A DNA stretch of 48,823 nt from a bacterium (lineage in GTDB: Bacteria > SAR324 > XYD2-FULL-50-16), in contig JAVVEA010000022.1 in the NCBI GenBank assembly GCA_032250835.1, positions 1 through 48,823 on the forward strand, read 5' to 3'. Made by a program: the position numbers and the translations under genes. The notes beneath the pieces are model-generated. The model worked only from the letters and a program-made list of their open reading frames with translations, made no database searches and was not told where the DNA came from. Shown in pieces: positions 727 to 12,008 of the stretch (its first letter is position 1; each line of letters opens with the position of its first letter).

Positions 727-1884
727 ATGAAGCGGATTTACCTTTTTCTATTGTTGCCCCTGTGGGTCGGTTGTGGTGGTGGCGACACCCTTTCGGTGGT
801 CAGTAAGCGTTGCTTGAATATCGACGTCCCCGCAGGCTATACGTTGCCCGACACGGGGCAACGTACCTGCTATGACCAAAGTGGGGACCAGATTTCCTGC
901 CCCGCCTCCACGGCAGATGCCTACGGCCAAGACGCCCAATACAGCCAAGGCCGTGATTTTATCCTCTGCGGCCACCATAAAGTCTTCTTCGACAACCAAA
1001 CGGGGCTCTACTGGGTCCGCGGCACCCAAAGCCGCACCACCTATGAAGCGGCCTCAACGGCCTGCGACGGCTTGGAAATAGACCAGCTTTCCAATTGGCG
1101 GCTGCCGAACCTGCGTGAATTGAGCAGTCTCTTAGACTATTCGGGTACGGTGGACGCTAGCAGCTCGGGCGCGCCCAGCAATCCCTTCATTATCGATAAT
1201 CTGGCCTTTAGCTACGACAGCAGCTCGGACACCACCGGTGACCAAACTATCCAGATGATGGGCCAAAGCTGGACCAGCACCGCCCGCCCCGATCTGACCA
1301 GTTCGCATTATACAGTCAACTTTTTAACCGGCAACATCGAGAGCGACAACACCAGCGACAGCACCGCCGACGCTTTTTATCGCTGTGTTCAGGGGACCGA
1401 ACAGGGGATGGTTAGCCGCTACACCAGCTTGGGCGATGGCACCAGTCAAGACGCCACCACTGATCTGATGTGGCAGCAAACCGCCAGCAACACCCGCTAC
1501 AGCTGGCAAGAGGCGCTCGCCTATTGCGAAGGACTTGAACTGGGCGGCTATACCGACTGGCGTTTGCCCAACATCAGCGAATTGCAAAGCCTAGTGGACT
1601 ATGGCAACGCCACGGTGGGGCTGGATACCCAGTATTTTGGCTACAGTCATGACACCGGCACCCTCGGTTATTATTGGAGCGGGACCACCGATGAGGAAAC
1701 CCCGGCTTACGCCTTTTATGTCTGTTTTGGCCCCTGCTCTAACGCCGACAGTACCGCTGACGTGATGGGCCCCGGTGCGGTCCGTTCGGGCCCCAAATAC
1801 GACGACGGCAACCTGCCCACCTCGATTGGCGCCTACCAAGATTATGTACAGGCGAGTAACTATGTACGGTGTGTCCGTAATTGA
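727..1884 (+). CDS. DUF1566 (Lcl-domain) lipoprotein
   Basis: Signal peptide with lipobox LWVG-C from ATG 727; LPDTGQxxCY..GQDAQY, two DxxTGLxW...WRLPNxxELxSLxDY repeats, terminal YVRCVR. Confidence 0.85.
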   Translation: MKRIYLFLLLPLWVGCGGGDTLSVVSKRCLNIDVPAGYTLPDTGQRTCYDQSGDQISCPASTADAYGQDAQYSQGRDFILCGHHKVFFDNQTGLYWVRGTQSRTTYEAASTACDGLEIDQLSNWRLPNLRELSSLLDYSGTVDASSSGAPSNPFIIDNLAFSYDSSSDTTGDQTIQMMGQSWTSTARPDLTSSHYTVNFLTGNIESDNTSDSTADAFYRCVQGTEQGMVSRYTSLGDGTSQDATTDLMWQQTASNTRYSWQEALAYCEGLELGGYTDWRLPNISELQSLVDYGNATVGLDTQYFGYSHDTGTLGYYWSGTTDEETPAYAFYVCFGPCSNADSTADVMGPGAVRSGPKYDDGNLPTSIGAYQDYVQASNYVRCVRN

Positions 1885-2023
1885 GGAAAAGGGTGCTTTT
1901 TTAACTACCTGTTGGAAAAAGACATTTATTTTACAAAGGCCCTGTTGCAAGGAACCATAAGGGTTTAGAAGTCAAATATAGCTCTTTTGGGGGCTAAAGA
2001 GCCTGCTTGCGGCAGAATAAAGA

Positions 2024-2052
2024 TAGACAAGCGCTTCGGGCTCTTGTAGTCT
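2024..2052 (+). promoter_or_regulatory. sigma70-type promoter for the DEAD-box helicase leader
   Basis: TAGACA-N17-TAGTCT. Confidence 0.45.
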
Positions 2053-2057
2053 CGGGG

Positions 2058-2435
2058 CAGACTAAGTCAAAGATTTGGTCCTAAAGCCGTTCCTGCTTAA
2101 TCAAGCATCCGGCACCACGCCTCCGGGCGTATCCTATAGGGTCGACTACCACTGGACCCGAAACTAACCACCAGTCAGTGGATCAAGGTCCTGGTGAGCC
2201 ACCGGACCAGGAATCCGCATCCAATCGCTTACCGCAGAATCGGAAGATTTTGGGCCACTACCATAGCCCCTCCTTTTCCGTCGGCGCGGTGAATCCAACG
2301 GGCTTATCGGCCCTGTGGGGTTTGAGCCACCCCTCCCAACGTAGACTATATCGGTCCCGCGGTTGAGCTAAAGGCTCCCGAGGACCCAAGAAAAACGGCG
2401 GCAAGACCGCCAACAAACCACAGTATAGGTAGATT
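2058..2435 (+). promoter_or_regulatory. candidate long structured 5' leader of the DEAD-box helicase
   Basis: ~380 nt without a credible ORF, containing serial hairpins (ACGCC-TCCG-GGCGT; CCACTG...CAGTGG; TCCTGGT...ACCAGGA; GGTCC..GAGC-TAAAG-GCTC..GGACC; GGCGG-CAAGA-CCGCC). Confidence 0.4.
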
Positions 2436-3797
2436 TTGTTAAAATTTGAAGAACTGGCACTCATTCCCGAACTGATCCAATCGCTCAAGTCCGCGGGCTA
2501 CGATACGCCCACCCCGATTCAAGCCCAGTCTATCCCCCACTTATTAGAAGGCAAAGACCTTTTGGGTATCGCCCAAACCGGTACCGGCAAAACCGCCGCT
2601 TTCGCTTTGCCGATCTTAAACCACTTAGCCCTTTCGGGCGGTCGGGCCAAGCCGGGCCATTGCCGCGCTTTGATCCTGACCCCGACCCGCGAGTTGGCCT
2701 CGCAGATTTTCGATAGCTTAAAAACCTATGGCAAAAACCTGCGCATGCACAACACCGTGATCTTCGGCGGCGTTAACCAGAACCCCCAAGTTCGCGCCAT
2801 GCTGCGCGGTGTGGATGTTTTGGTGGCTACCCCCGGTCGCTTGATGGACCTGATGAATCAGGGCCAAGTGCATTTGGGCCAAGTGGAGGTCTTTGTCCTC
2901 GATGAAGCCGACCGCATGTTGGACATGGGTTTTATCAACGACATCCGCAAGATTTCGGCAAAGGTGCCCCAGCAGCGCCAAACGTTGCTCTTCTCGGCTA
3001 CCATGCCCAAAGACATCGCCGCGCTGGCCGCCAGCCTGCTCAAAGACCCGGTCCGGGTGGAAATCAGCCCCGAGTCGACCACTGTTGAGCGGATCACCCA
3101 AAAGGTGATGCTGGTCCAGAAGAGCCAAAAGTCCGCTTTGCTGCGCGACATCTTGGCCATGGAATCCATTGATCAGGCCTTGGTCTTTAGCCGCACCAAG
3201 CGCGGTGCCGACCGGTTGGTCAGTGACCTGAGCCGCTACGGGGTCCCTTGTGACGCCATCCACGGCAACAAAACCCAATCGGCGCGTCAGCGTTCTTTGG
3301 GTAACTTCCGCTCTGGTAAGTTGCGGGTTTTGGTGGCTACCGACATCGCCGCGCGCGGTATCGACGTCGCCGGGATCAGCCATGTGATCAACTACGACCT
3401 GCCCAACGAGCCGGAATCTTACGTACACCGCATCGGTCGTACCGCAAGAGCCGGACGCGAAGGCACGGCGATCTCTTTTTGTGATGCTTCGGAACGGCCC
3501 TTGTTGCTCGCTATTGAGCGCTCGATCCGCAAGAAGTTGCCCCGGCACGAACACGACCGGATCGACTTTACCGCGCCTCATCATCAGGAATTGCCCTTGC
3601 AGCCTGAAGCCGCCTTGGCCGCTCAGAAAACCCATAGCCAAAAGCACAAGCCCAAGACCCACGGTACCGCTGCGGTAACCGCCGGTCCCGGTGCTGCTGC
3701 GGGCAATGGTGGTTCGAAGCGCCCCTCGCGCCGGATGGTGACTTCGGCCCCCGCTGGTGGCCCTTCTAGAAGGCCTTCACGCCGTAAGGTAGTGTAA
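2436..3797 (+). CDS. rhlE: ATP-dependent DEAD-box RNA helicase, RhlE type
   Basis: Q motif, [34 protein letters not shown]; basic disordered C-tail. Confidence 0.92.
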
Positions 3798-3892: not shown

Positions 3893-4225
3893 ATGTATTC
3901 AAATTCTTTAGCCAAACCCTTGGCTGACTCCCCCCGACCTTACCGATCTCAAGATTCCAGCCCTATTTGGTCTACCCAGGTAGCCTTGGCTAAAGCCCAA
4001 AAGCTGGGACTTAAGTTAAGTGCCGAAGCTTGGGCTGTGGTGCAGACCGCCAGGGAACTGGGGCAGTCCCAAGGAACCCTACCTCACCTTTACCTTTTGG
4101 TGGGCCATGCGGGGCGGCAGATGAATCTTAGCCAAAAACGCGCCCTGCGCCGCTTGTATCAGCTTTTTGGCGGCGACCCCAGGCCGCGTCTGGCCTATTT
4201 AACAGACCTACAGTTGGCCCCTTAG
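3893..4225 (+). CDS. TusE/DsrC-like protein lacking C-terminal cysteines
   Basis: GAGGAG RBS before ATG 3893; W..QVA...A...GLKLS.EAW.VV..AR...P.L....LY.LF.G.P pattern of the DsrC family, but no Cys anywhere. Confidence 0.6.
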   Translation: MYSNSLAKPLADSPRPYRSQDSSPIWSTQVALAKAQKLGLKLSAEAWAVVQTARELGQSQGTLPHLYLLVGHAGRQMNLSQKRALRRLYQLFGGDPRPRLAYLTDLQLAP

Positions 4226-4237
4226 GCCAAGCCAACC

Positions 4238-4266
4238 TTGAAGCACCTCGACAGATCGGTTATAAT
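4238..4266 (+). promoter_or_regulatory. sigma70 promoter
   Basis: TTGAAG-N17-TATAAT upstream of the GST gene. Confidence 0.65.
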
Positions 4267-4303
4267 AAAGGTTCAATGAACTTTACCGAAAGGATGAGGA
4301 ATC

Positions 4304-5257
4304 ATGGGGCGGTTAGTAGACGGCCAATGGCAAGACGACGATTTTGTGAACAAACAAGGCAGCGGGGCTTTTGACCGCGCGCCTTCAGCGATCCGCGACT
4401 GGGTCCGCGCCGATGGCAGCACCGCCTTTGGCCCCCAAGCGGGCCGCTACCACCTTTATCTTTCTTGGGCCTGCCCCTGGGCCCACCGCACCCTGATTTT
4501 ACGCGCCTTGAAGGGGTTGGAATCGGCCATCGGCGTCAGCTTTGTGGACGCGCTGATGGGCCCCAAGGGTTGGAGCTTTTCGACTCCTCCGGGCCATCAG
4601 CCCAAGGGCCTGCCCTCGCCCCGCTTCCTGCACCAACTCTACCAATACCATGACGCCCATTATAACGGCCGGGTCACGGTGCCGCTGCTTTGGGACTGCC
4701 AGACCGACCGGGCGGTGAACAACGAGTCTTCTGAAATCATTATCATGTTGGATCAGGAATTCCAGCAAATCGCCCAAGACCCAACCGAATATTACCCCGC
4801 CGCCCTGCGCCCGCAAATCGACGAGCTCAACGCCTGGATCTATGAAGAGGTCAACAACGGCGTCTACCGCTGCGGCTTTGCGGGGACTCAGGGGGCCTAT
4901 GAAGAGGCCTTTGCCCAACTCTTTGTCGCCTTGGACCGCTTAGAGGGCATCTTGGGAACCAACCGCTACCTGACCGGGGACCGCTTGACGCTGGCCGACT
5001 GGCGGCTTTTCACCACCCTGATCCGCTTCGACGCCGTTTATGTGGGGCACTTCAAGTGCAACCTGCGCCGCATCGCCGACTACCCCAACCTACAAGGCTA
5101 CCTAAAGGAACTCTACCAAATGCCCCAAGTCCGCCCAACGGTAGATTTCGCCCAGATCAAAACCCACTACTACGCCAGCCACAAAAGCCTAAACCCCCAG
5201 GGCATCATCCCGATAGGGCCTTGGTTGGATTTGGAGGGACCCCATATGCGGGGTTGA
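4304..5257 (+). CDS. yqjG: glutathionyl-hydroquinone reductase (Xi-class GST, YqjG/ECM4 family)
   Basis: GRYHLY..ACPWAHR, GRVTVP.LWD, NNESSEII, NNGVYRCGFA, RFDAVY..HFKCN, IK.HYY.SH. Confidence 0.93.
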   Translation: MGRLVDGQWQDDDFVNKQGSGAFDRAPSAIRDWVRADGSTAFGPQAGRYHLYLSWACPWAHRTLILRALKGLESAIGVSFVDALMGPKGWSFSTPPGHQPKGLPSPRFLHQLYQYHDAHYNGRVTVPLLWDCQTDRAVNNESSEIIIMLDQEFQQIAQDPTEYYPAALRPQIDELNAWIYEEVNNGVYRCGFAGTQGAYEEAFAQLFVALDRLEGILGTNRYLTGDRLTLADWRLFTTLIRFDAVYVGHFKCNLRRIADYPNLQGYLKELYQMPQVRPTVDFAQIKTHYYASHKSLNPQGIIPIGPWLDLEGPHMRG

Positions 5258-5316
5258 GCAAGCCCCCGCACGAGCGGGAACAGGGCGAGGAACTCTGAAA
5301 ATCAGGGGATAAACTT

Positions 5317-5335
5317 AGTATGCTGTCACCTGATT
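5317..5335 (-). repeat. boundary motif copy 1 (AATCAGGTGACAGCATACT on - strand)
   Basis: Matches the shared GGTGACAG motif; a partial + strand copy AATCAGGGGA lies at 5300-5309. Confidence 0.75.
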
Positions 5336-5469
5336 ACGTTGACTTGCCTAAAAGAGCTTCAAAACTTTGCGGGGAAAAGCCCTTTCGTTAGATGTGAGCT
5401 AGCAGGATCGAAGGCAATGGCCAGACCAAGAAACAGGTAATTCAGTTCCCAGATTCGACATCTTGAATC

Positions 5470-5498
5470 TTGATTTGCGTGCCGAATAGGCATACAAT
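5470..5498 (+). promoter_or_regulatory. sigma70 promoter of the BrnT-like TA operon, probably leaderless
   Basis: TTGATT-N17-TACAAT ending 5 nt before ATG 5504; TGCC-N5-GGCA palindrome in the spacer. Confidence 0.55.
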
Positions 5499-5503
5499 CA
5501 CCC

Positions 5504-5752
5504 ATGAAGAATAAATTTCGGTGGAATCCAAAGAAGAACATCCTGCTAGAAAAGACACGTGGTGTCTCTTTTGAAGTGATCGTTGCCCTGTTTGAAACCG
5601 GGAAATTCACCGTCAGGCGACACCCTACAAGGCCGAATCAAAAAATCGCTACCTTGGTTTTGGAGGGTTATCCCTGGGATGTGTCCTTTGTGGAAGAAGA
5701 AAGCGGAGTGTTCTTCTTGAAGACCGCCTACCCCAACCGGAAGCGAAAATGA
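5504..5752 (+). CDS. BrnT-like type II toxin
   Basis: 82 aa; F.WN..KN..L...RGVSFE..., FLKTAYPNRK; 4-nt overlap with antitoxin. Confidence 0.8.
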   Translation: MKNKFRWNPKKNILLEKTRGVSFEVIVALFETGKFTVRRHPTRPNQKIATLVLEGYPWDVSFVEEESGVFFLKTAYPNRKRK

Positions 5753-6051
5753 GCAAGAAACGAGACTACAACGATCCGAAGATGTTTGAGCCAATGGACG
5801 CCGAAGAAGCGGAGTTGATGGCCGAGGCGGACAGCTATGTATCTTTAGACGAATCCGAGTCGGAACGCATCAAAGAAGCGCTGCAAATTGCCGCCAAGAA
5901 CAGCTTGAAAAAGACCGAACGGACGAACATCCGCATCAGCGAGGCCGACTTGGAAGCGCTAAAGCTATTGGCTGCTCAAGAAGGGGTGGGTTACCAAACC
6001 CTCATCTCCGGCATTCTGCACAAGGTGGCTTCGGGGCAGTTGGAGGTTTAG
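5749..6051 (+). CDS. BrnA/CopG-like antitoxin
   Basis: C-terminal RHH KTERTNIRISEADL..LK..A..EG..YQTLI..ILH. Confidence 0.85.
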   Translation: MSKKRDYNDPKMFEPMDAEEAELMAEADSYVSLDESESERIKEALQIAAKNSLKKTERTNIRISEADLEALKLLAAQEGVGYQTLISGILHKVASGQLEV

Positions 6052-6097
6052 TCAGGTTAGCTGCGATAGGCCTGAACGCTCCTTGTTTAAGGTCTCA

Positions 6098-6158
6098 AAA
6101 ATTAGGGGACAGTTACCTAAATTTCGAAATCAAAAATCAGTATACTGTCACCTGATTT
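6098..6158. repeat. boundary motif copies 2 (+, ~6098-6123) and 3 (-, ~6133-6158), inverted pair
   Basis: AAATTAGGGGACAGTTACCTAAATT on +; AAATCAGGTGACAGTATACTGATTT on -; each is itself a short stem-loop. Confidence 0.85.
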
Positions 6159-6388
6159 CACGGAATTCGCTAAATGAGCAATTGATCGGCAAATATCTTG
6201 ACCAAGGGATACGCTCCCAAAACAGCGGTATTCTCTGGGTCGTGAATAAAACAGGAAAACAGTTTCAAAAGGATGATGGAACTTTGACAAGCTTTGAGGA
6301 AGCCATTGAGATACTGAATATTGAAGCGCAACCAAAAGCTTTAGAGTGGGGATTAGCTGGTCTTCAGGTGATTGGGGCGCAACTTTAA
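6159..6388 (+). pseudogene. 3'-terminal fragment of a larger gene, truncated at the motif
   Basis: Frame SLNEQLIGKYLDQGIRSQNSGILWVV...LQVIGAQL* has no start/RBS of its own after the motif; resembles (from memory) C-termini of large NACHT/STAND proteins. Confidence 0.4.
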
Positions 6389-6415
6389 AGCGGTTTTCGA
6401 ATCTAGGGATTTACG

Positions 6416-7783
6416 ATGCTTTATGATGTTTTTATTTGTCACGCAAGCGAAGATAAAGATGCATTCGTACGCCCTTTGGCGGATAAGCTTAAAAACAGTC
6501 ATTTGGAAGTTTGGTACGATGAGTTTTCACTTTCCGTAGGAGATAGTCTTCGGGAGTCGATTGATAAGGGCCTTGCAAAGTCGCGTTTTGGAATCGTCGT
6601 GTTAAGCCCAGCTTTTTTTGAAAAGAGTTGGGCGAAGCGGGAACTAAACGGGTTGACCTCTCGTGAAATGAACTCCTCTGACTCCCTGATCTTGCCAATT
6701 TGGCATAATGTCAATCTTGATCAAGTCCTAGATTTCTCACCTCCCTTGGCCGACAAAAAAGCCATTGTTTCTAATGAAGGCATAGACTTTGTTTGTTTCG
6801 AACTATTAAAAAAACTACGTCCTGATGAAAGCCCTTTGTTGGTAGCAAGAGACGAGCTAATCCATTTCGGCTTGAATCCGCCGGTTGTGACTGATGAATA
6901 CTGGCTTGATGTTGTTGAAGCGTCCAATCGTATTCCATGTTGGGGATTTGTCCCTCCGCCTGGTGTCGACTGGGGAAGATGGACCTTCCCGTTGCCCAAT
7001 TTTCAAAGTAAGGGAGAATATCGGGGAGTTCGGCTTGCATGGACTGCAATGCAAATGCAGTGGGAAAAGGAAGCTGAACGAATACCTATCACACAAATTA
7101 CCCCTCCTGAAATTGTGCAGGAATTTATACGTACGCAGCCAGGGCTTAGGGAGATTTGCCATAAATACCCAAACTTACTAGCCGAATATGCACCTCAGCT
7201 TACAATCGTAGGGTATGGCGGTGAATTCGAAGAAGATTTTAAGCAATTGCTGGAGGACTCTGAAAGGAAACGGAGGGAACAAAAAGATACGATTTCTGGC
7301 ACCGGCCTAACGATAAACAAGGAAGTGCCCAAGTGTGATCAAAATATTGCCTTGCGACACCCAACTTTCGGTGATTATGAGTCAGATATCGTTGCAAGTC
7401 AGTTTGTCAGCGGGGATTTGGGCGGTCCTCATGTTAAGTATTATCGGACTTTCGATTATCTCGTGTGGTTGCTTTCATCAGATTCTGAATGGTTACCTAC
7501 ACCGATTTGGGAAACGCTTATAGAAGGCATAAAAAAGTGGAATACTTGGCTTCCGAATGATTCCATGGAGGAATTCTCGGCTCCTTTTATCCAATCAATT
7601 GCAAGGGCGAAAACCTATAAAACCTTTCAATTTGGCAAGAAAACACAAGCATCGTTAAAACAGATAATTGAGCAAGCAGCCAGGAATATGGCTTTGATTG
7701 GAGATGTAGATGAGGTGTATAATAAATTTATTGCGCAGGGTTTTATTCAGGAGTATTTTAAGCGTAGCAAAAGAGCTCGATAA
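6416..7783 (+). CDS. TIR-domain protein (N-terminal TIR_2 plus unknown ~320-aa C-terminal region), candidate defence protein
   Basis: YDVFICHASEDK..FVRPLA..L....VWYDEF.L.VGDSLRESIDKGL..SRFGIVVLS..FF.K.WAKREL; visibly AT-richer than flanks. Confidence 0.88.
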   Translation: MLYDVFICHASEDKDAFVRPLADKLKNSHLEVWYDEFSLSVGDSLRESIDKGLAKSRFGIVVLSPAFFEKSWAKRELNGLTSREMNSSDSLILPIWHNVNLDQVLDFSPPLADKKAIVSNEGIDFVCFELLKKLRPDESPLLVARDELIHFGLNPPVVTDEYWLDVVEASNRIPCWGFVPPPGVDWGRWTFPLPNFQSKGEYRGVRLAWTAMQMQWEKEAERIPITQITPPEIVQEFIRTQPGLREICHKYPNLLAEYAPQLTIVGYGGEFEEDFKQLLEDSERKRREQKDTISGTGLTINKEVPKCDQNIALRHPTFGDYESDIVASQFVSGDLGGPHVKYYRTFDYLVWLLSSDSEWLPTPIWETLIEGIKKWNTWLPNDSMEEFSAPFIQSIARAKTYKTFQFGKKTQASLKQIIEQAARNMALIGDVDEVYNKFIAQGFIQEYFKRSKRAR

Positions 7784-7824
7784 TATCATCTCCAGGGCTC
7801 TTTTACTAGGATTGTGACAAAATC

Positions 7825-7850
7825 AAAATCAGGTGACAGTTACCTATTTT
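7825..7850 (+). repeat. boundary motif copy 4
   Basis: AAAATCAGGTGACAGTTACCTATTTT. Confidence 0.85.
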
Positions 7851-8716
7851 TTCGCCCCTAAATCCCAAGAACTGGGATGTACGGCTCTTAGGTTCCCTTT
7901 TGCGAGCGGCTTAGAGCCCCTAGCCGCGCTAAGCAGCTCCGAAGCTAGGGAGTCGGCTTCGCCGACGGTTAACACAGCAACACTAGCAGTGCTCGCATCA
8001 CTACGCCCGCAGCCCCCTCTGCTCTTAGCTTTGAAAATTCTTGGGAGGATAGGGTCTTTTGATACCCCCATTGGTGAGACGCTTAGAGCCCCTAGCCAAG
8101 CATAGCGTTAAGAAAGCCAACTGTCTGACCTTCGAGCGCAGCGAGGGCGAGTTTTGGCTTTTAGCGTAGCTTGGCGTAGGGGGTCTTAGCGGTGAGCCTT
8201 TGGGGGCTGGTTTTTTTGCTTCTTTTCCATTGGGTGTTGGCTTCGCCAACTGTTTAGGCTACGCAACACTCGCTGGCTCGCGTCGTCACACACGTCGCCC
8301 TCGGCCTGCGGCCTCGAAGCTCCTTAGTGAGCCAAAAAAGAAGTCCCAACTCTCAATTTCTTCCAGCAATTTTGTGCCTCCCATTGGCCAGAAGGGAAGA
8401 GCCTTGCGAACCGAGGGATTCACGCCCTCAAGCGTCGCTGCGCTCACGGCACTCAGTAGGACGGGTTTTAGGCGGAAAGCCCCCGCAAGAGCCGGAACAG
8501 GACAAAGCGCTCTTGCGGGGAGGGGCGTGAGCCCCCTTGGGGAACCGGACCGGGGGGCGGCCTGAGTTGAAATCTTAAACCTGTGCGGCCAGAATTTGGT
8601 CCATCTCGCTGGCCAACAGGTCCAGGTGTTTTTTCTTCTCGTCGGCCATCCCCATAAAGAGTTTTTTGGAGTTCTCCTTGGTCGCTTGTTCCGAAAGGCG
8701 GGTATAAAAGTCATTG
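7851..8716. repeat. diverged, partly rearranged direct-repeat copy of ~9529-10358
   Basis: Shared blocks: GGTTCCCTTTTGCGAGCGGCTTAGAGCCCCTAGCCGCGCTAAGCAGCT; GGCTCGCGTCGTCACACACGTCGCCCTCGGCCTGCGGCCTCGAAGCTCCTTAGTG; AAGCCCCCGCAAGAGCCGGAACAGGACAAAGC... Confidence 0.85.
8575..8712 (-). pseudogene. 5'-truncated duplicate of the last 46 codons of the rhodanese-rubrerythrin gene
   Basis: Reads DFYTRLSEQATKENSKKLFMGMADEKKKHLDLLASEMDQILAAQV* versus intact DFYTRLSEQASKDDSKKLFMEMADEEKKHLGLLAGEMDQILAAQA* (10221-10358). Confidence 0.9.
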
Positions 8717-8740
8717 AAATCAGGTGACCGTATACCTAAT
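8717..8740 (+). repeat. boundary motif copy 5
   Basis: AAATCAGGTGACCGTATACCTAAT, 4 nt from the truncation point of the gene fragment. Confidence 0.8.
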
Positions 8741-8804
8741 CTGTGGATTGGAAAAAATGGTTAAACTGCCCCATGATTTTCTGATGGTTCAATTTTAATT
8801 TCGC

Positions 8805-8833
8805 TTTACAATACTATTGCCTTAAGATATGCT
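8805..8833 (+). promoter_or_regulatory. sigma70 promoter of higBA
   Basis: TTTACA-N17-TATGCT. Confidence 0.55.
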
Positions 8834-8858
8834 TTTCTCGAAATCACTAGGCAAAAGA

Positions 8859-9140
8859 ATGATCCAAAGCTTCAAAAGCAAGGAAACGGAAAGGCTCTTT
8901 GACGGGCGGCCCGTCAAAGGTTTCGCGAAGGAGCTGCAAAAGAAGGCCCTGGTGCGGCTCATGTGGCTGCATCGGGCCACCTTGGTCGAAGACTTGCGAG
9001 TTCCTCCCTCCAACCGCTTGGAGGCGCTGTCGGGCGACTTAAAGGGGTTTCATTCCATTCGCGTCAACCGGCAGTTTCGCATCCTCTTTCGTTTTGAGGG
9101 CGGCCATGCTTACGACGTGGCCTTAACCGACTACCACTAA
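8859..9140 (+). CDS. higB: HigB-type (RelE/ParE superfamily) toxin
   Basis: MIQSFKSKETERLF...DLRVPPSNRLEAL.GD..G.HSIRVN.QFRI.FRF....AYDV..TDYH; start taken at ATG 8859. Confidence 0.92.
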   Translation: MIQSFKSKETERLFDGRPVKGFAKELQKKALVRLMWLHRATLVEDLRVPPSNRLEALSGDLKGFHSIRVNRQFRILFRFEGGHAYDVALTDYH

Positions 9141-9148
9141 AAGGGACC

Positions 9149-9439
9149 ATGACGGATTTTATCGAGCTGACGCATCCTGGAGAGCAGGTCAAGGAGATCC
9201 TGGAAGAGTTGCATCTGACGGTGTACCGGGCCGCCAAGCTGATGGGGATTCCCGCCCCCAGGCTGGATCGGATCACCAAGGGCAAGCGGTCGATCACTCC
9301 CGATAGTTCCATTCGTCTGGGGTTGCTGTTCGGCCAAAGCCCCGCCTTTTGGCACAACATCCAGGCCGACTACGACTTCCGCAAGGCCCGCCAAGAAATG
9401 GGCGAACTGCCCGATATCTCGCCGATCAAGACGGCATAG
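9149..9439 (+). CDS. higA: HigA-type HTH antitoxin
   Basis: HPGE..KE.LEEL.LT.Y..AK.MGI...R...I..GKRSIT.D..IRLG..FG.S..FW.N.Q..YD. Confidence 0.92.
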   Translation: MTDFIELTHPGEQVKEILEELHLTVYRAAKLMGIPAPRLDRITKGKRSITPDSSIRLGLLFGQSPAFWHNIQADYDFRKARQEMGELPDISPIKTA

Positions 9440-9456
9440 AATTACCCGAACTGAAT

Positions 9457-9485
9457 CCGCCGCCTGTTTTACGATAAGGCGGCGG
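9457..9485. terminator. GC hairpin after higA
   Basis: CCGCCGCCT-N11-AGGCGGCGG. Confidence 0.45.
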
Positions 9486-9503
9486 CGAAAACTGGGATTC
9501 TGT

Positions 9504-9528
9504 AATACGGTGACAGTTACCTAATTTT
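9504..9528 (+). repeat. boundary motif copy 6
   Basis: AATACGGTGACAGTTACCTAATTTT. Confidence 0.85.
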
Positions 9529-10220
9529 TGCAGCGTTCAGCCCCAAGACCTGCGGAGTAAGGGCCTTGGGTTCCCTTTTGCGAGCGGCTTAGAGCCCCTA
9601 GCCGCGCTAAGCAGCTTCGAAGCCGTCAGGCTGAGGGCTGCGTGGGTAGCAATGCGAGCCGGCGAGCATTGCCAAGCCAAAAGCCAAACTGTCTGAGCTT
9701 CGAGCGTTGGGGAGTCGGCTTCGCCGACGGCTTACATGAGCGACACTCGCCGGCTCGCGTCGCTACGCCCGCAGCCCTCACTTCGTTCGGTGCTGCTTGG
9801 CGAGAGAGGTGTAGGGGGTCTTGAGCGCGAAGGTGAGGGCTCGTTTCTTTGTTACATTTTAATTGGAAGTTGGCTTCGCCAACGGCCTAGGCTGCGCGAC
9901 ACTCGCCGGCTCGCGTCGTCACACACGTCGCCCTCGGCCTGCGGCCTCGAAGCTCCTTAGTGGGCCAAAGGCCCCTGGACCCCACTTAGTTTATAAACGG
10001 CGAGGCTAGCCTCCCAACCTAAATCTGGCCAAAACCCAGGACTTGCGGGATATGGGTCTTGGGTTCCCTTTTACGGGCGGTTTGGTGCCTCAGGGTACTC
10101 AGTAGGGCAGGTTTTAGGCGAGAAGCCCCCGCAAGAGCCGGAACAGGACAAAGCACTCTTGCGGGGAGGGGCGTGAGCCCCCTTGGGGACCCGGACCGGG
10201 GGACGGCCCGAGTAGAAAAC

Positions 10221-11051
10221 TTAAGCCTGCGCGGCTAGGATTTGGTCCATCTCGCCAGCCAACAGGCCCAGGTGTTTTTTCTCTTCGTCGGCCATTTCCA
10301 TGAAGAGCTTTTTAGAGTCATCCTTAGAGGCTTGCTCAGAGAGGCGGGTATAGAAGTCGAAGGCCTGGGCTTCGATGGCCATGGCCAAGCTAAAGACCTC
10401 TTCGTTAGAAGTCATGCGGGGCAGGACCTGCTGGGCCAACTCGTCGATCTTAAAGCCGCCTTCCATGATCCCTTGGTAATCAGCGGGGATTTCGGCAAAT
10501 TCGCCCTTTCCGCCCTTGGAGATCAGGTTTTCTTTGTGGTGGTCCTCGAAGCTGGCGAGGCGCTCTAGTAGGGTTTTGAACTCAGGCTTATCGACTTTTT
10601 CGGCCAACTTGTGGTAAAAGGCCTGTAGACCCGATTCCATGGCGTAAGACATAGCCAGCGCGTCGGGGTACTCGGCGTCGGCACCGATTAAGTTGAGGTT
10701 ATGGGCCACCGGACCCGCCGCCGAGAGGCCGACCCAGCTGCTATAGCCACCCTGGACGTCGTAAAGCTCAGTGAAACCCATTTGGGCCATATGTTGGGCG
10801 GCAGCAGCGCTGCGGCGGCCCGCATGGCAGTAGACGAGGGTCGGCTTGCTTTTGTCTAGGTCCACTTGGCTCGCGACCACTTGGTCTAGGGGGATCAAGA
10901 CCGAGCCGGGGATGTGGCCCTGTTCGTATTCGCCGGGCTGGCGCACGTCAACCAACTGATAAGATTCCGTTGGGTGGTTTCGGCAGTATTCACGGGCCTC
11001 AACAGGGCTGATCAATTTTACATTGTGGGTCATCACATCATTCCACTGCAT
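10221..11051 (-). CDS. rhodanese + rubrerythrin/ferritin-like fusion protein
   Basis: DVRQPGEYEQGHIPGS, active-site YCHAGRRS; C-terminal ExxH pairs (EDHH, EKKH); GAGG RBS favours ATG 11051. Confidence 0.88.
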   Translation of the reverse strand: MQWNDVMTHNVKLISPVEAREYCRNHPTESYQLVDVRQPGEYEQGHIPGSVLIPLDQVVASQVDLDKSKPTLVYCHAGRRSAAAAQHMAQMGFTELYDVQGGYSSWVGLSAAGPVAHNLNLIGADAEYPDALAMSYAMESGLQAFYHKLAEKVDKPEFKTLLERLASFEDHHKENLISKGGKGEFAEIPADYQGIMEGGFKIDELAQQVLPRMTSNEEVFSLAMAIEAQAFDFYTRLSEQASKDDSKKLFMEMADEEKKHLGLLAGEMDQILAAQA

Positions 11052-11139
11052 ATTCACCTCTAAATGGCGGTTAGATCATCGGTGCAACTGACTTAAAAAC
11101 CCGGCAAAACAATCGCTACGAGGTTCAAAAAAGAAGTAG

Positions 11140-11168
11140 TTGCAAATATACATATATTCATATATTAT
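11140..11168 (+). promoter_or_regulatory. sigma70 promoter with AATAT-N4-ATATT palindrome upstream of persulfide dioxygenase
   Basis: TTGCAA-N17-TATTAT; contains AAATAT-ACAT-ATATTCA-T-ATATTA. Confidence 0.55.
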
Positions 11169-11214
11169 CCATGTAAATTAATCAAGCCAAAGCATCACTT
11201 TTTTGGAGGAAGAC

Positions 11215-11937
11215 ATGGCTAAACCGTTAGAGTTCCGGCAATTGTTCGATGAAGAGACCAGTACCTTCACCTACCTTTTATTTGATGGCGCGACTAAAGA
11301 AGGAATTTTGATCGACTCTGTACTAGAGCAGGTGGACCGCGATGTTCAATTGCTCAAGGACCTTGGGGTCAAGCTGGTCTATACCTTAGATACCCACGTC
11401 CACGCCGACCACATCACCGGGGCGGGCAAGCTTCGTGAGCAGTTGGGCTGTAAGTTTGGGTTAGGTAAAGGTGCGGGGCTCGAATGCGCGGACCTATTGA
11501 TGGCCGACGGCGAGACCCTTGAGTTCTCGGGGCATCAAGTCAAGGCTTTGGCCACTCCCGGCCATACCGACGGCTGCACTAGCTTTTTGATCGACGACAT
11601 GGTCTTCACCGGCGATGCGCTGTTTATCCGCGGTTGCGGCCGCACCGACTTCCAGCAAGGCAGCCCCGAAAGGCTTTGGGACAGCGTCAAAAACCAACTC
11701 TTCACCCTGCCCGATGCCACCAAGGTCTACCCTGGACATGACTATAAAGGCATGACCATGACCACCGTGGCCGAAGAAAAGGCGCTGAATCCGCGCTTAG
11801 GCGGCACCAAGACCAAAGAAGAGTTTGTCCAAATCATGAACAATCTCAACCTGCCCTACCCCAAGAAACTGGACGCTTCGCTCCCGGCGAACCTGGCCTG
11901 CGGGATGGTACTCAAGGAAGCAGCGGCTAGCGCATAA
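11215..11937 (+). CDS. persulfide (sulfur) dioxygenase, ETHE1-type metallo-beta-lactamase fold
   Basis: FRQLFD..TST.TYLL, THVHADHITG, TPGHT, GDALFIRGCGRTDFQ, PGHDY, C-terminal NLACG; GGAGGA RBS. Confidence 0.92.
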   Translation: MAKPLEFRQLFDEETSTFTYLLFDGATKEGILIDSVLEQVDRDVQLLKDLGVKLVYTLDTHVHADHITGAGKLREQLGCKFGLGKGAGLECADLLMADGETLEFSGHQVKALATPGHTDGCTSFLIDDMVFTGDALFIRGCGRTDFQQGSPERLWDSVKNQLFTLPDATKVYPGHDYKGMTMTTVAEEKALNPRLGGTKTKEEFVQIMNNLNLPYPKKLDASLPANLACGMVLKEAAASA

Positions 11938-11970
11938 GTCGCCCTTGATGGACCCGAATATTTAAGGCAT

Positions 11971-12008
11971 AAAAAAGGCTTCAGGGCATTGCTCTGAAGC
12001 CTTTTTTT
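11971..12008. terminator. bidirectional rho-independent terminator
   Basis: AAAAAAGGCTTCAGGGC-ATT-GCTCTGAAGCCTTTTTTT between convergent genes. Confidence 0.9.

Follow-up and report, generated by a model that had tools for sequence, protein, structure and literature searches.

The window analysed here is the entire contig C14 (JAVVEA010000022.1; 48,823 nucleotides) of a 43-contig, 3.66-Mb genome of a SAR324 bacterium, referred to below as G000; the relatives used for comparison carry similar labels (G004, G007, G015, G016 and others). Positions 5298-10220 of the window, flanked by a GST-like and a rhodanese core gene, form a small toxin-antitoxin (TA) and defence island, and a short repeat recurs within it. 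This repeat very probably represents a repetitive extragenic palindromic (REP) family, whose inverted doublets correspond to REP doublets forming hairpins (REPINs) and whose enzyme is a REP-associated tyrosine transposase (RAYT) encoded on contig C43, the island being a mosaic with the repeats at its module joints.

The repeat is dispersed throughout the genome. A position matrix built from 38 copies and applied at a threshold of 14 bits detects 71 copies on 16 contigs of G000 and none in the reversed sequence used as a control, which answers the call of a first-pass annotation of the window for a genome-wide motif scan. Only 13 of 70 copies lie wholly inside open reading frames (ORFs) of at least 100 aa and 57 do not, though such ORFs make up 90.5% of the genome. 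Neighbouring copies within 150 nt of each other form 10 convergent, 8 tandem and no divergent pairs. The spacers of the REPINs measure 4-60 nt, and tandem runs of two to three REPs at one site occur on C43 (53060-53153) and in G015 (C84:131500-137500). Many full copies are directly preceded by a half REP comprising roughly the first 12 nt (C5:40440, C41:117505 and C43:893 in G000; L063, within C84:163500-173500, at 3270 and L065 at 1763 in G015). Of 18 further genomes of the family, 9 contain a 19-mer of the repeat, as against none of 12 genomes from outside the family. Conservation is confined to about 25 nt, indicating that the copies are not the ends of a longer element. On this ground the ends of a Tn7-like or other longer element were rejected, as were the ends of an insertion sequence (IS) or miniature inverted-repeat transposable element, the sole transposase flanked by the motif being single-copy. 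A DNA uptake sequence was dismissed for a copy number that is far too low and a sigma-70 promoter for the lack of a fitting spacing, as judged by eye.

Within the window, the 25-mer described by the first-pass annotation has four copies with up to three mismatches, against none in 100 shuffles, and a search with a 24-nt consensus together with the matrix recovers all six copies listed there. No others had been noticed in the window; the matrix adds a weak seventh (8755-8778, minus strand) and finds no further copy of at least 14 bits in the 48.8 kb. The first description of their orientation holds: the BrnA-type pair and the TIR gene each lie between inverted copies, HigBA between direct ones. 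The motif had also been called a stem-loop, a description that fits the doublets but not the single copies. As single-stranded DNA, single REPs have folding free energies (dG) of -0.3 to -3.1 kcal/mol (z +0.8 to -1.6), no better than shuffles, while the inverted doublet at 6094-6163 reaches -9.0 kcal/mol (z -3.3) and one on contig C5 reaches -20.9 kcal/mol (z -6.2). The half copy near 5300 and the REP that it overlaps also fold together (dG -5.8 kcal/mol, z -2.9). The fold of the doublet at 8718-8778 is not significant.

According to the first-pass annotation, the motif could be the target of an HUH/Y1 enzyme working in trans, like TnpA(REP)/RAYT, and copies should be sought beside a RAYT or IS200-like gene. 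Such a gene exists. The only Pfam Y1_Tnp match in G000 (C43:2516-3175, 219 aa, 42.9 bits) is flanked by inverted REPs, one at 2442(+) and the other, which overlaps the stop codon of the gene, at 3169-3192(-). The protein contains NHIHLL as its HUH motif and ARYVERNP as its tyrosine motif, and among NCBIfam families it matches REP_Tyr_transpos best (E 2.6e-17, 63 bits). An orthologue in G015, which belongs to another genus, is 63% identical and likewise lies between inverted REPs. A profile of nine RAYT orthologues has E. coli TnpA(REP) (4ER8) as its top PDB match (E 6.3e-5) and matches IS200/IS605 transposases more weakly (E 0.006-0.27). Copy number, extragenic placement, doublets and a flanked RAYT are defining features of REP/REPIN-RAYT systems, as far as the cited accounts describe them (PMC3333891, PMC5581495, PMC3390384). 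The inverted doublet is most likely the mobile unit and would have been copied throughout the genome by the single RAYT.

Alternatively, the motif could be a regulatory element of TA and defence operons, an operator or a bidirectional terminator, and not mobile DNA. Its distance of 40-170 nt from gene starts and stops and its A-rich and T-rich ends would suit such a function. However, copies are present on either side of genes, have unrelated genes as neighbours, enclose a transposase gene in two genera and are arranged as doublets of fixed orientation and tandem runs, and a single copy folds no better than shuffled sequence. A regulatory element is thus highly unlikely as the primary identity of the repeat, though a secondary role of this kind is possible.

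A further alternative regards the repeats as degenerate attC sites and the array as a set of integron cassettes without the integrase, that is, a cluster of attC sites lacking integron integrases (CALIN). The cassette-like layout and cargo are in keeping with this, and G015, G004 and G016 carry both the repeat and genuine integron integrase (IntI) genes, which score 438-463 bits against a cut-off of 265. In G000, by contrast, the best TIGR02249 score is 67 bits against the same 265-bit cut-off, and the window contig has no match to an integron-integrase model, in agreement with the first-pass annotation. Around the four IntI genes of the relatives no REP was found, the DNA searched extending about 0.6-5 kb towards the contig start and 0.7-4 kb in the other direction. 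Three of the four genes lie 0.6-1.4 kb from the contig start, so that cassette arrays were not assembled beside them, and the G015:C77 copy has an in-frame TAG. The absence of attC architecture, noted at first reading, is also upheld: neither the matrix nor 37 listed G015 copy pairings show conserved ends of the attC type, and with no conserved flanking triplets the core and inverse core of attC sites are missing. The unit of 24-52 nt is shorter than attC sites, and the copies are spread over 16 contigs and flank a Y1 transposase. An attC origin is therefore extremely unlikely.

The REPs of G000 are associated with TA and defence genes. A Pfam scan finds a recognised TA or defence ORF within 600 bp of 12 of the 23 REP clusters scanned, corresponding to 29 of the 71 copies when unscanned copies are counted as negative. 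None of 60 random intergenic gaps (114 flanking ORFs in 20 random 20-kb regions) is flanked by such a family. The association is strong statistically and real in this genome. Families found beside REPs are PIN_3, HTH/DUF6932, Fic, DUF433, CopG/BrnA, TumE, ParDE, HicAB, HigBA and TIR. Counted by genome-wide hits, three of five for ParE, two of five for CopG-antitoxin, one of three for HigB-like and neither of two for PIN are beside a REP, one C40 locus being counted as both ParE and HigB-like. Roughly every second REP cluster has ordinary or unrecognised genes as its neighbours; the ordinary ones include those for QueA, GDP-mannose dehydratase, a sigma-54 activator, a cold-shock protein and GFA. 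On C1 (79500-85500, at 3003-3538) a PIN_3 toxin gene between convergent REPs is split into two overlapping ORFs by an apparent frameshift and adjoins an HTH/DUF6932 pair. On C38 (151187-151306) a ParE fragment in a 44-aa frame, covering profile positions 47-89, ends 6 nt from a REP doublet. A literature search that took in articles without their supplements returned no genome-wide association of REPs with TA genes.

Several points weigh against the assignment and against the association. The 63 bits of the RAYT are below the 80-bit NCBIfam cut-off for REP_Tyr_transpos, and a single-sequence phmmer search of the PDB with this protein missed TnpA(REP), giving one chance-level match. The repeat is AT-rich (33% GC in a 55% GC genome), its consensus contains neither GTAG nor CGTC, and the single REP is a poor hairpin. 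E. coli TnpA(REP) requires the GTAG tag, according to the part of the study considered here (PMC3333891). The 71 copies are few compared with the 500-1500 reported for Pseudomonas. As for the association, seven of the 30 REP clusters in total were left out of the scan, the test units differ (up to 600 bp for REP clusters, the immediate flanking ORFs for the control), ORFs were called naively and some clusters may depend on one another. The placement is the opposite in Pseudomonas, where REP deserts hold the mobile elements and strain-specific genes, in the portion of the work cited (PMC3390384); given this difference, neutral accumulation may not be the whole story here. Lastly, the genomes compared belong to other genera, no public sequencing run was listed for positions 4300-11100, and the breakpoints are presumed ones. 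Regarding the tag, the GTAG and CGTC 5′ tetranucleotides define E. coli-type superfamilies and not all RAYT groups, as stated in the sections cited (PMC3333891, PMC3733652). The motif is a REP family and not a new type of site, and the system departs from described ones in its lack of the GTAG tag, low GC content, modest copy number and an enzyme distant from that of E. coli.

The island itself is a mosaic of at least three modules that differ in origin, namely the BrnA-type pair, a NACHT remnant with the TIR gene, and HigBA, and the joints between them are occupied by REP or REPIN copies and by a second, GC-rich repeat family (Table 1). The 82-aa ORF at the start of the first module shares 35% identity with its counterpart in another BrnA-type pair, and its antitoxin neighbour scores 21-28 bits, just under both Pfam cut-offs. 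The ORF at 6083-6388 matches NCBIfam HyoA only at positions 1353-1424 of 1430 (about 70 residues; E 3.4e-5, far below the cut-off). The TIR protein matches PDC-S66 (6.7e-60) and ThsB (1.1e-35) in PADLOC. HigBA has the type II layout of a HigB-like toxin followed by an HTH antitoxin, HigA. The TIR part is low in GC (40-46%) compared with HigBA (52-58%). On the right, the rhodanese orthologue stays beside an MBL gene in three relatives. The rhodanese-MBL pair is kept in G010, G006 and G013 and the GST side is not, and for this reason no empty site can be defined. One metagenome scan in which the rhodanese protein served as query found no relative. A search of positions 4000-12000 against Rfam at a permissive threshold gave just Mcr7, at 20 bits against 380 and thus far below threshold.

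Table 1. Coordinates of repeats, genes and comparison loci (window positions unless a contig is given)
Feature	Position	Strand	Details
GST-like gene, left core flank	4304..5257	+	Pfam GST_C_2, GST_N_2
GC-rich hairpin module, partial copy	5260..5296		81-84% to 8477-8513 and 10123-10159
Half REP copy	~5300-5311	+	seen by eye; overlaps REP 5312-5335(-)
REP	5312-5335	-	39.7 bits (position matrix)
Putative BrnT-like toxin, 82 aa	5504..5752	+	Pfam BrnT_toxin 16.4 bits, E 0.011; cut-off 34.5 bits
BrnA/CopG-type antitoxin	5749..6051	+	Pfam CopG_antitoxin 5.1e-6, BrnA_antitoxin 3.4e-4
REPIN-type doublet	6100-6123, 6134-6157	+, -	10-nt spacer; position matrix
NACHT antiphage protein, C-terminal remnant	6159..6388	+	cut at REP outer end
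TIR-domain defence-type protein, 455 aa	6416..7783	+	Pfam TIR_2 73.8 bits
REP, short-loop variant	7827-7850	+	28.0 bits
GC-rich modular dispersed repeat	7851..8572		75-89% to 9528-10220
REPIN-type doublet	8718-8741, 8755-8778	+, -	33.1 bits; weak second REP, 22.1 bits
HigB toxin	8829..9140	+	Pfam HigB-like_toxin PF05015 60.7 bits
HigA antitoxin	9149..9439	+	TIGR02607 78.2 bits, above 47.7-bit cut-off
REP, short-loop variant	9504-9527	+	22.9 bits
GC-rich modular dispersed repeat	9528..10220		listed as resident copy
Rhodanese + rubrerythrin-like gene, right core flank	10221..11057	-	Pfam Rhodanese, Rubrerythrin
NiFe-hydrogenase tail copy	G000:C43:48000-56000, 4143-4267		vs 5576-5700 in the same locus
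HigBA module of G007	G007:C19:104618-108260, 1500-2290		no REP in locus
REPIN-punctuated arrays of G015	G015:C84:131500-137500, 163500-173500, 177000-182284		
IntI loci	G015:C89, G004:C26, G016:C157, G015:C77		

Three truncated sequences in the island abut the AATCAGG (5′) end of a REP, which is the outer end in doublets. The first-pass annotation had placed three truncations at the motif; the gene tails at about 6159 and 8713 stand, while the hairpin near 5298 is a partial copy of a GC-rich hairpin module that its second arm does not follow. That the hairpin is merely interrupted by a REP-bearing insert of about 81 nt, with its second arm at about 5377-5385, was also considered; the alignment is ambiguous and this is not claimed. 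The gene tail at 8575..8712 on the minus strand repeats the final 45 codons and the stop codon of the rhodanese/rubrerythrin gene with 83% DNA identity and ends 5 nt from the REP at 8718. Frame and stop are intact and the codon differences from the intact gene are 13 synonymous and 8 non-synonymous, which points to divergence in a working orthologue and not to decay after an internal duplication. The tail copy is accompanied by a GC-rich repeat and a REP, so that 7827-8712 corresponds as a whole to 9504-10358 (75-89%), and either of the two rhodanese tail segments may be the imported one.

A second locus has the same anatomy. It is found on C43, where HicAB, three REPs, the GC-rich repeat and an intact gene for a NiFe-hydrogenase large subunit are accompanied by a 125-nt copy (94%) of the 3′ tail of that gene. 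The HigBA module of G007 is preceded by 62 nt that copy a HigA tail and are 85% identical to the 3′ end of HigA in the window. The GC-rich family is itself widespread, a 693-nt query giving 139 BLAST matches on 20 of the 43 contigs. It consists of sub-units of about 70 nt with internal inverted repeats, has no Rfam match and occurs on C11, C22, C33, C38, C39, C42 and other contigs. It often begins right after a short-loop REP (7827 and 9504 on C14, 329869 on C22, 47063 on C13 and 53097 on C43).

Positions 8795-9438, comprising the HigBA promoter and both genes, are 88% identical over 644 nt to contig C19 of G007, a member of a different genus. Other window DNA (20 kb) matches G007 at 63-75% identity and the rhodanese orthologue there has 42% protein identity. 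No REP-like copy was found within about 1.5 kb on either side of HigBA in G007 and no RAYT was found in that genome; the module adjoins a TumE/HVO_A0114 pair. On sequence comparison, HigBA has been exchanged between genera without visible involvement of REPs, and the G007 locus shows that the module travels, and that TA modules cluster, without the repeat. The three BrnA-type cassettes of G000 are 35-56% identical in protein and alike in DNA solely at their REPs, so that the REPs are younger than the cargo or independent of it.

These arrangements would be consistent with the import of modules by recombination anchored in a conserved gene, with REPINs at the joints. Modules would come repeatedly from relatives in which this conserved gene has other cargo downstream. 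Recombination within the conserved neighbouring gene would join one end and an illegitimate event the other, leaving duplicated gene tails behind. REPINs would accumulate at the break-and-join points and, as hairpin-forming repeats, would probably help to create them, which would explain the truncated sequences at REP outer ends. The RAYT would move the repeats and not the cassettes.

A different view is that the REPIN-bounded modules are true cassettes, cut out and inserted by the RAYT or by another enzyme acting on REP hairpins, so that the array would be the non-integron gene-capture platform proposed by the first-pass annotation for accumulating defence and addiction cargo. The strong enrichment of REPs by TA and defence genes and the three truncated sequences at AATCAGG ends speak for it, as does the location of the RAYT gene between inverted REPs. 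So does G015, where small genes, mostly in one orientation, form runs with 52-nt REPIN doublets between them. Their cargo (glyoxalase, GNAT, three copies of a HEPN-nucleotidyltransferase, VapBC, MazE-PIN, HicAB, ParE, Gp49/HTH, cupin, GFA and GrpB) is one that we take to resemble that of chromosomal integron cassettes. But 16 REP-rich loci of G015 contain no duplicated or near-identical cassettes at two places; the repeats found there instead are a 155-nt REPIN with a long spacer and one gene fragment of 80%. The geometry is also at odds with cassettes: the REPs turn their 5′ ends towards the cargo, which lies between REPINs, but their 3′ ends towards the RAYT gene, which is enclosed by a REP pair. 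Together with the movement of HigBA between genera and the clustering of TA modules in G007 without REPs, the diverged BrnA cassettes with similar REPs and the many REP clusters beside ordinary genes, this makes true cassettes unlikely, and the proposed platform is not sustained.

In a variant of this idea, an integron-like, integrase-free system for shuffling small accessory, TA and anti-phage genes would have recruited REPINs and the RAYT as its joints; either the RAYT would act on REP hairpins or shared REPs would serve as portable points of homology or breakage for incoming DNA of relatives. Co-option would explain both the G015 arrays and the truncated flanks in the window; its chances are nevertheless slim. 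The REP/REPIN family with the C43 RAYT, at the joints of a mosaic island, remains the preferred account.

Several known systems resemble the one described here. The E. coli REP or bacterial interspersed mosaic element system with TnpA(REP), the ‘REPtron’, likewise has an intergenic repeat in inverted pairs and a single-copy Y1/HUH transposase that the repeat always flanks (PMC3333891; PDB 4ER8). It differs in having, by the figure quoted, 584 REPs in K-12 against the 71 copies here (PMC3333891), and in G000 the repeat is without GTAG, has 33% GC and is only weakly palindromic as a single copy, and the enzyme is distant from that of E. coli. Some E. coli strains carry the hicAB TA genes at the tnpA(REP) site, as the excerpt used here mentions (PMC3333891). 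The REPIN-RAYT systems of Pseudomonas share the fixed-orientation inverted doublets, which probably form the mobile unit, a single cognate RAYT in each genome with its REPs on both sides and a repeat common to one lineage, in the parts of the reports drawn upon (PMC3116915, PMC3337134, PMC3390384, PMC5581495). Their spacers, as given there, measure 60-70 bp in contrast to 4-60 nt here, and in G000 TA or defence modules adjoin half of the clusters scanned.

The transposases of IS200/IS605 elements recognise hairpins on single-stranded DNA. They belong to the same Y1/HUH fold family (PDB 2XM3, 2A6M and others), but the RAYT is single-copy, is far outnumbered by the repeats and is closer to TnpA(REP) by profile. 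Integron arrays and integrase-less attC clusters similarly show runs of small accessory and TA genes between hairpin-forming repeats, a likeness that is clearest in G015. Here, however, IntI and the attC core and inverse core are missing, the sites are shorter and dispersed, and the associated protein is a Y1 enzyme instead of a tyrosine recombinase. Finally, ccdO157 of E. coli, located between folA and apaH, is a chromosomal TA module whose intergenic site is variable and frequently contains a REP, and REPs have been suggested to add to plasticity, as far as the cited passages go (PMC3184786). That case concerns one locus, in contrast to the genome-wide association measured against a control here.

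With the assignment to a REP/REPIN family with a RAYT, an apparent new class of recombination site is removed. The literature cited places REP/REPIN-RAYT systems in gamma-proteobacteria. REPs are usually regarded as markers of old, stable DNA, and their placement at the joints of TA and defence modules contrasts with this usual view. If the association is causal, it bears on the role of REPIN-RAYT systems in their host and on the assembly of defence islands. The placement bias is worth a proper comparative test.

Other loci of G000 show related features. On C5 (40456-45999) five ORFs without Pfam families have REP doublets on both sides, and on C41 (112897-117594) an 847-aa PLD-like protein and a 551-aa ORF lie between REP doublets; both regions may be REP-bounded islands. 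On C39 (6611-7664) a short G/C-rich palindrome-like word occurs in six copies on one strand, about 170-290 nt apart.

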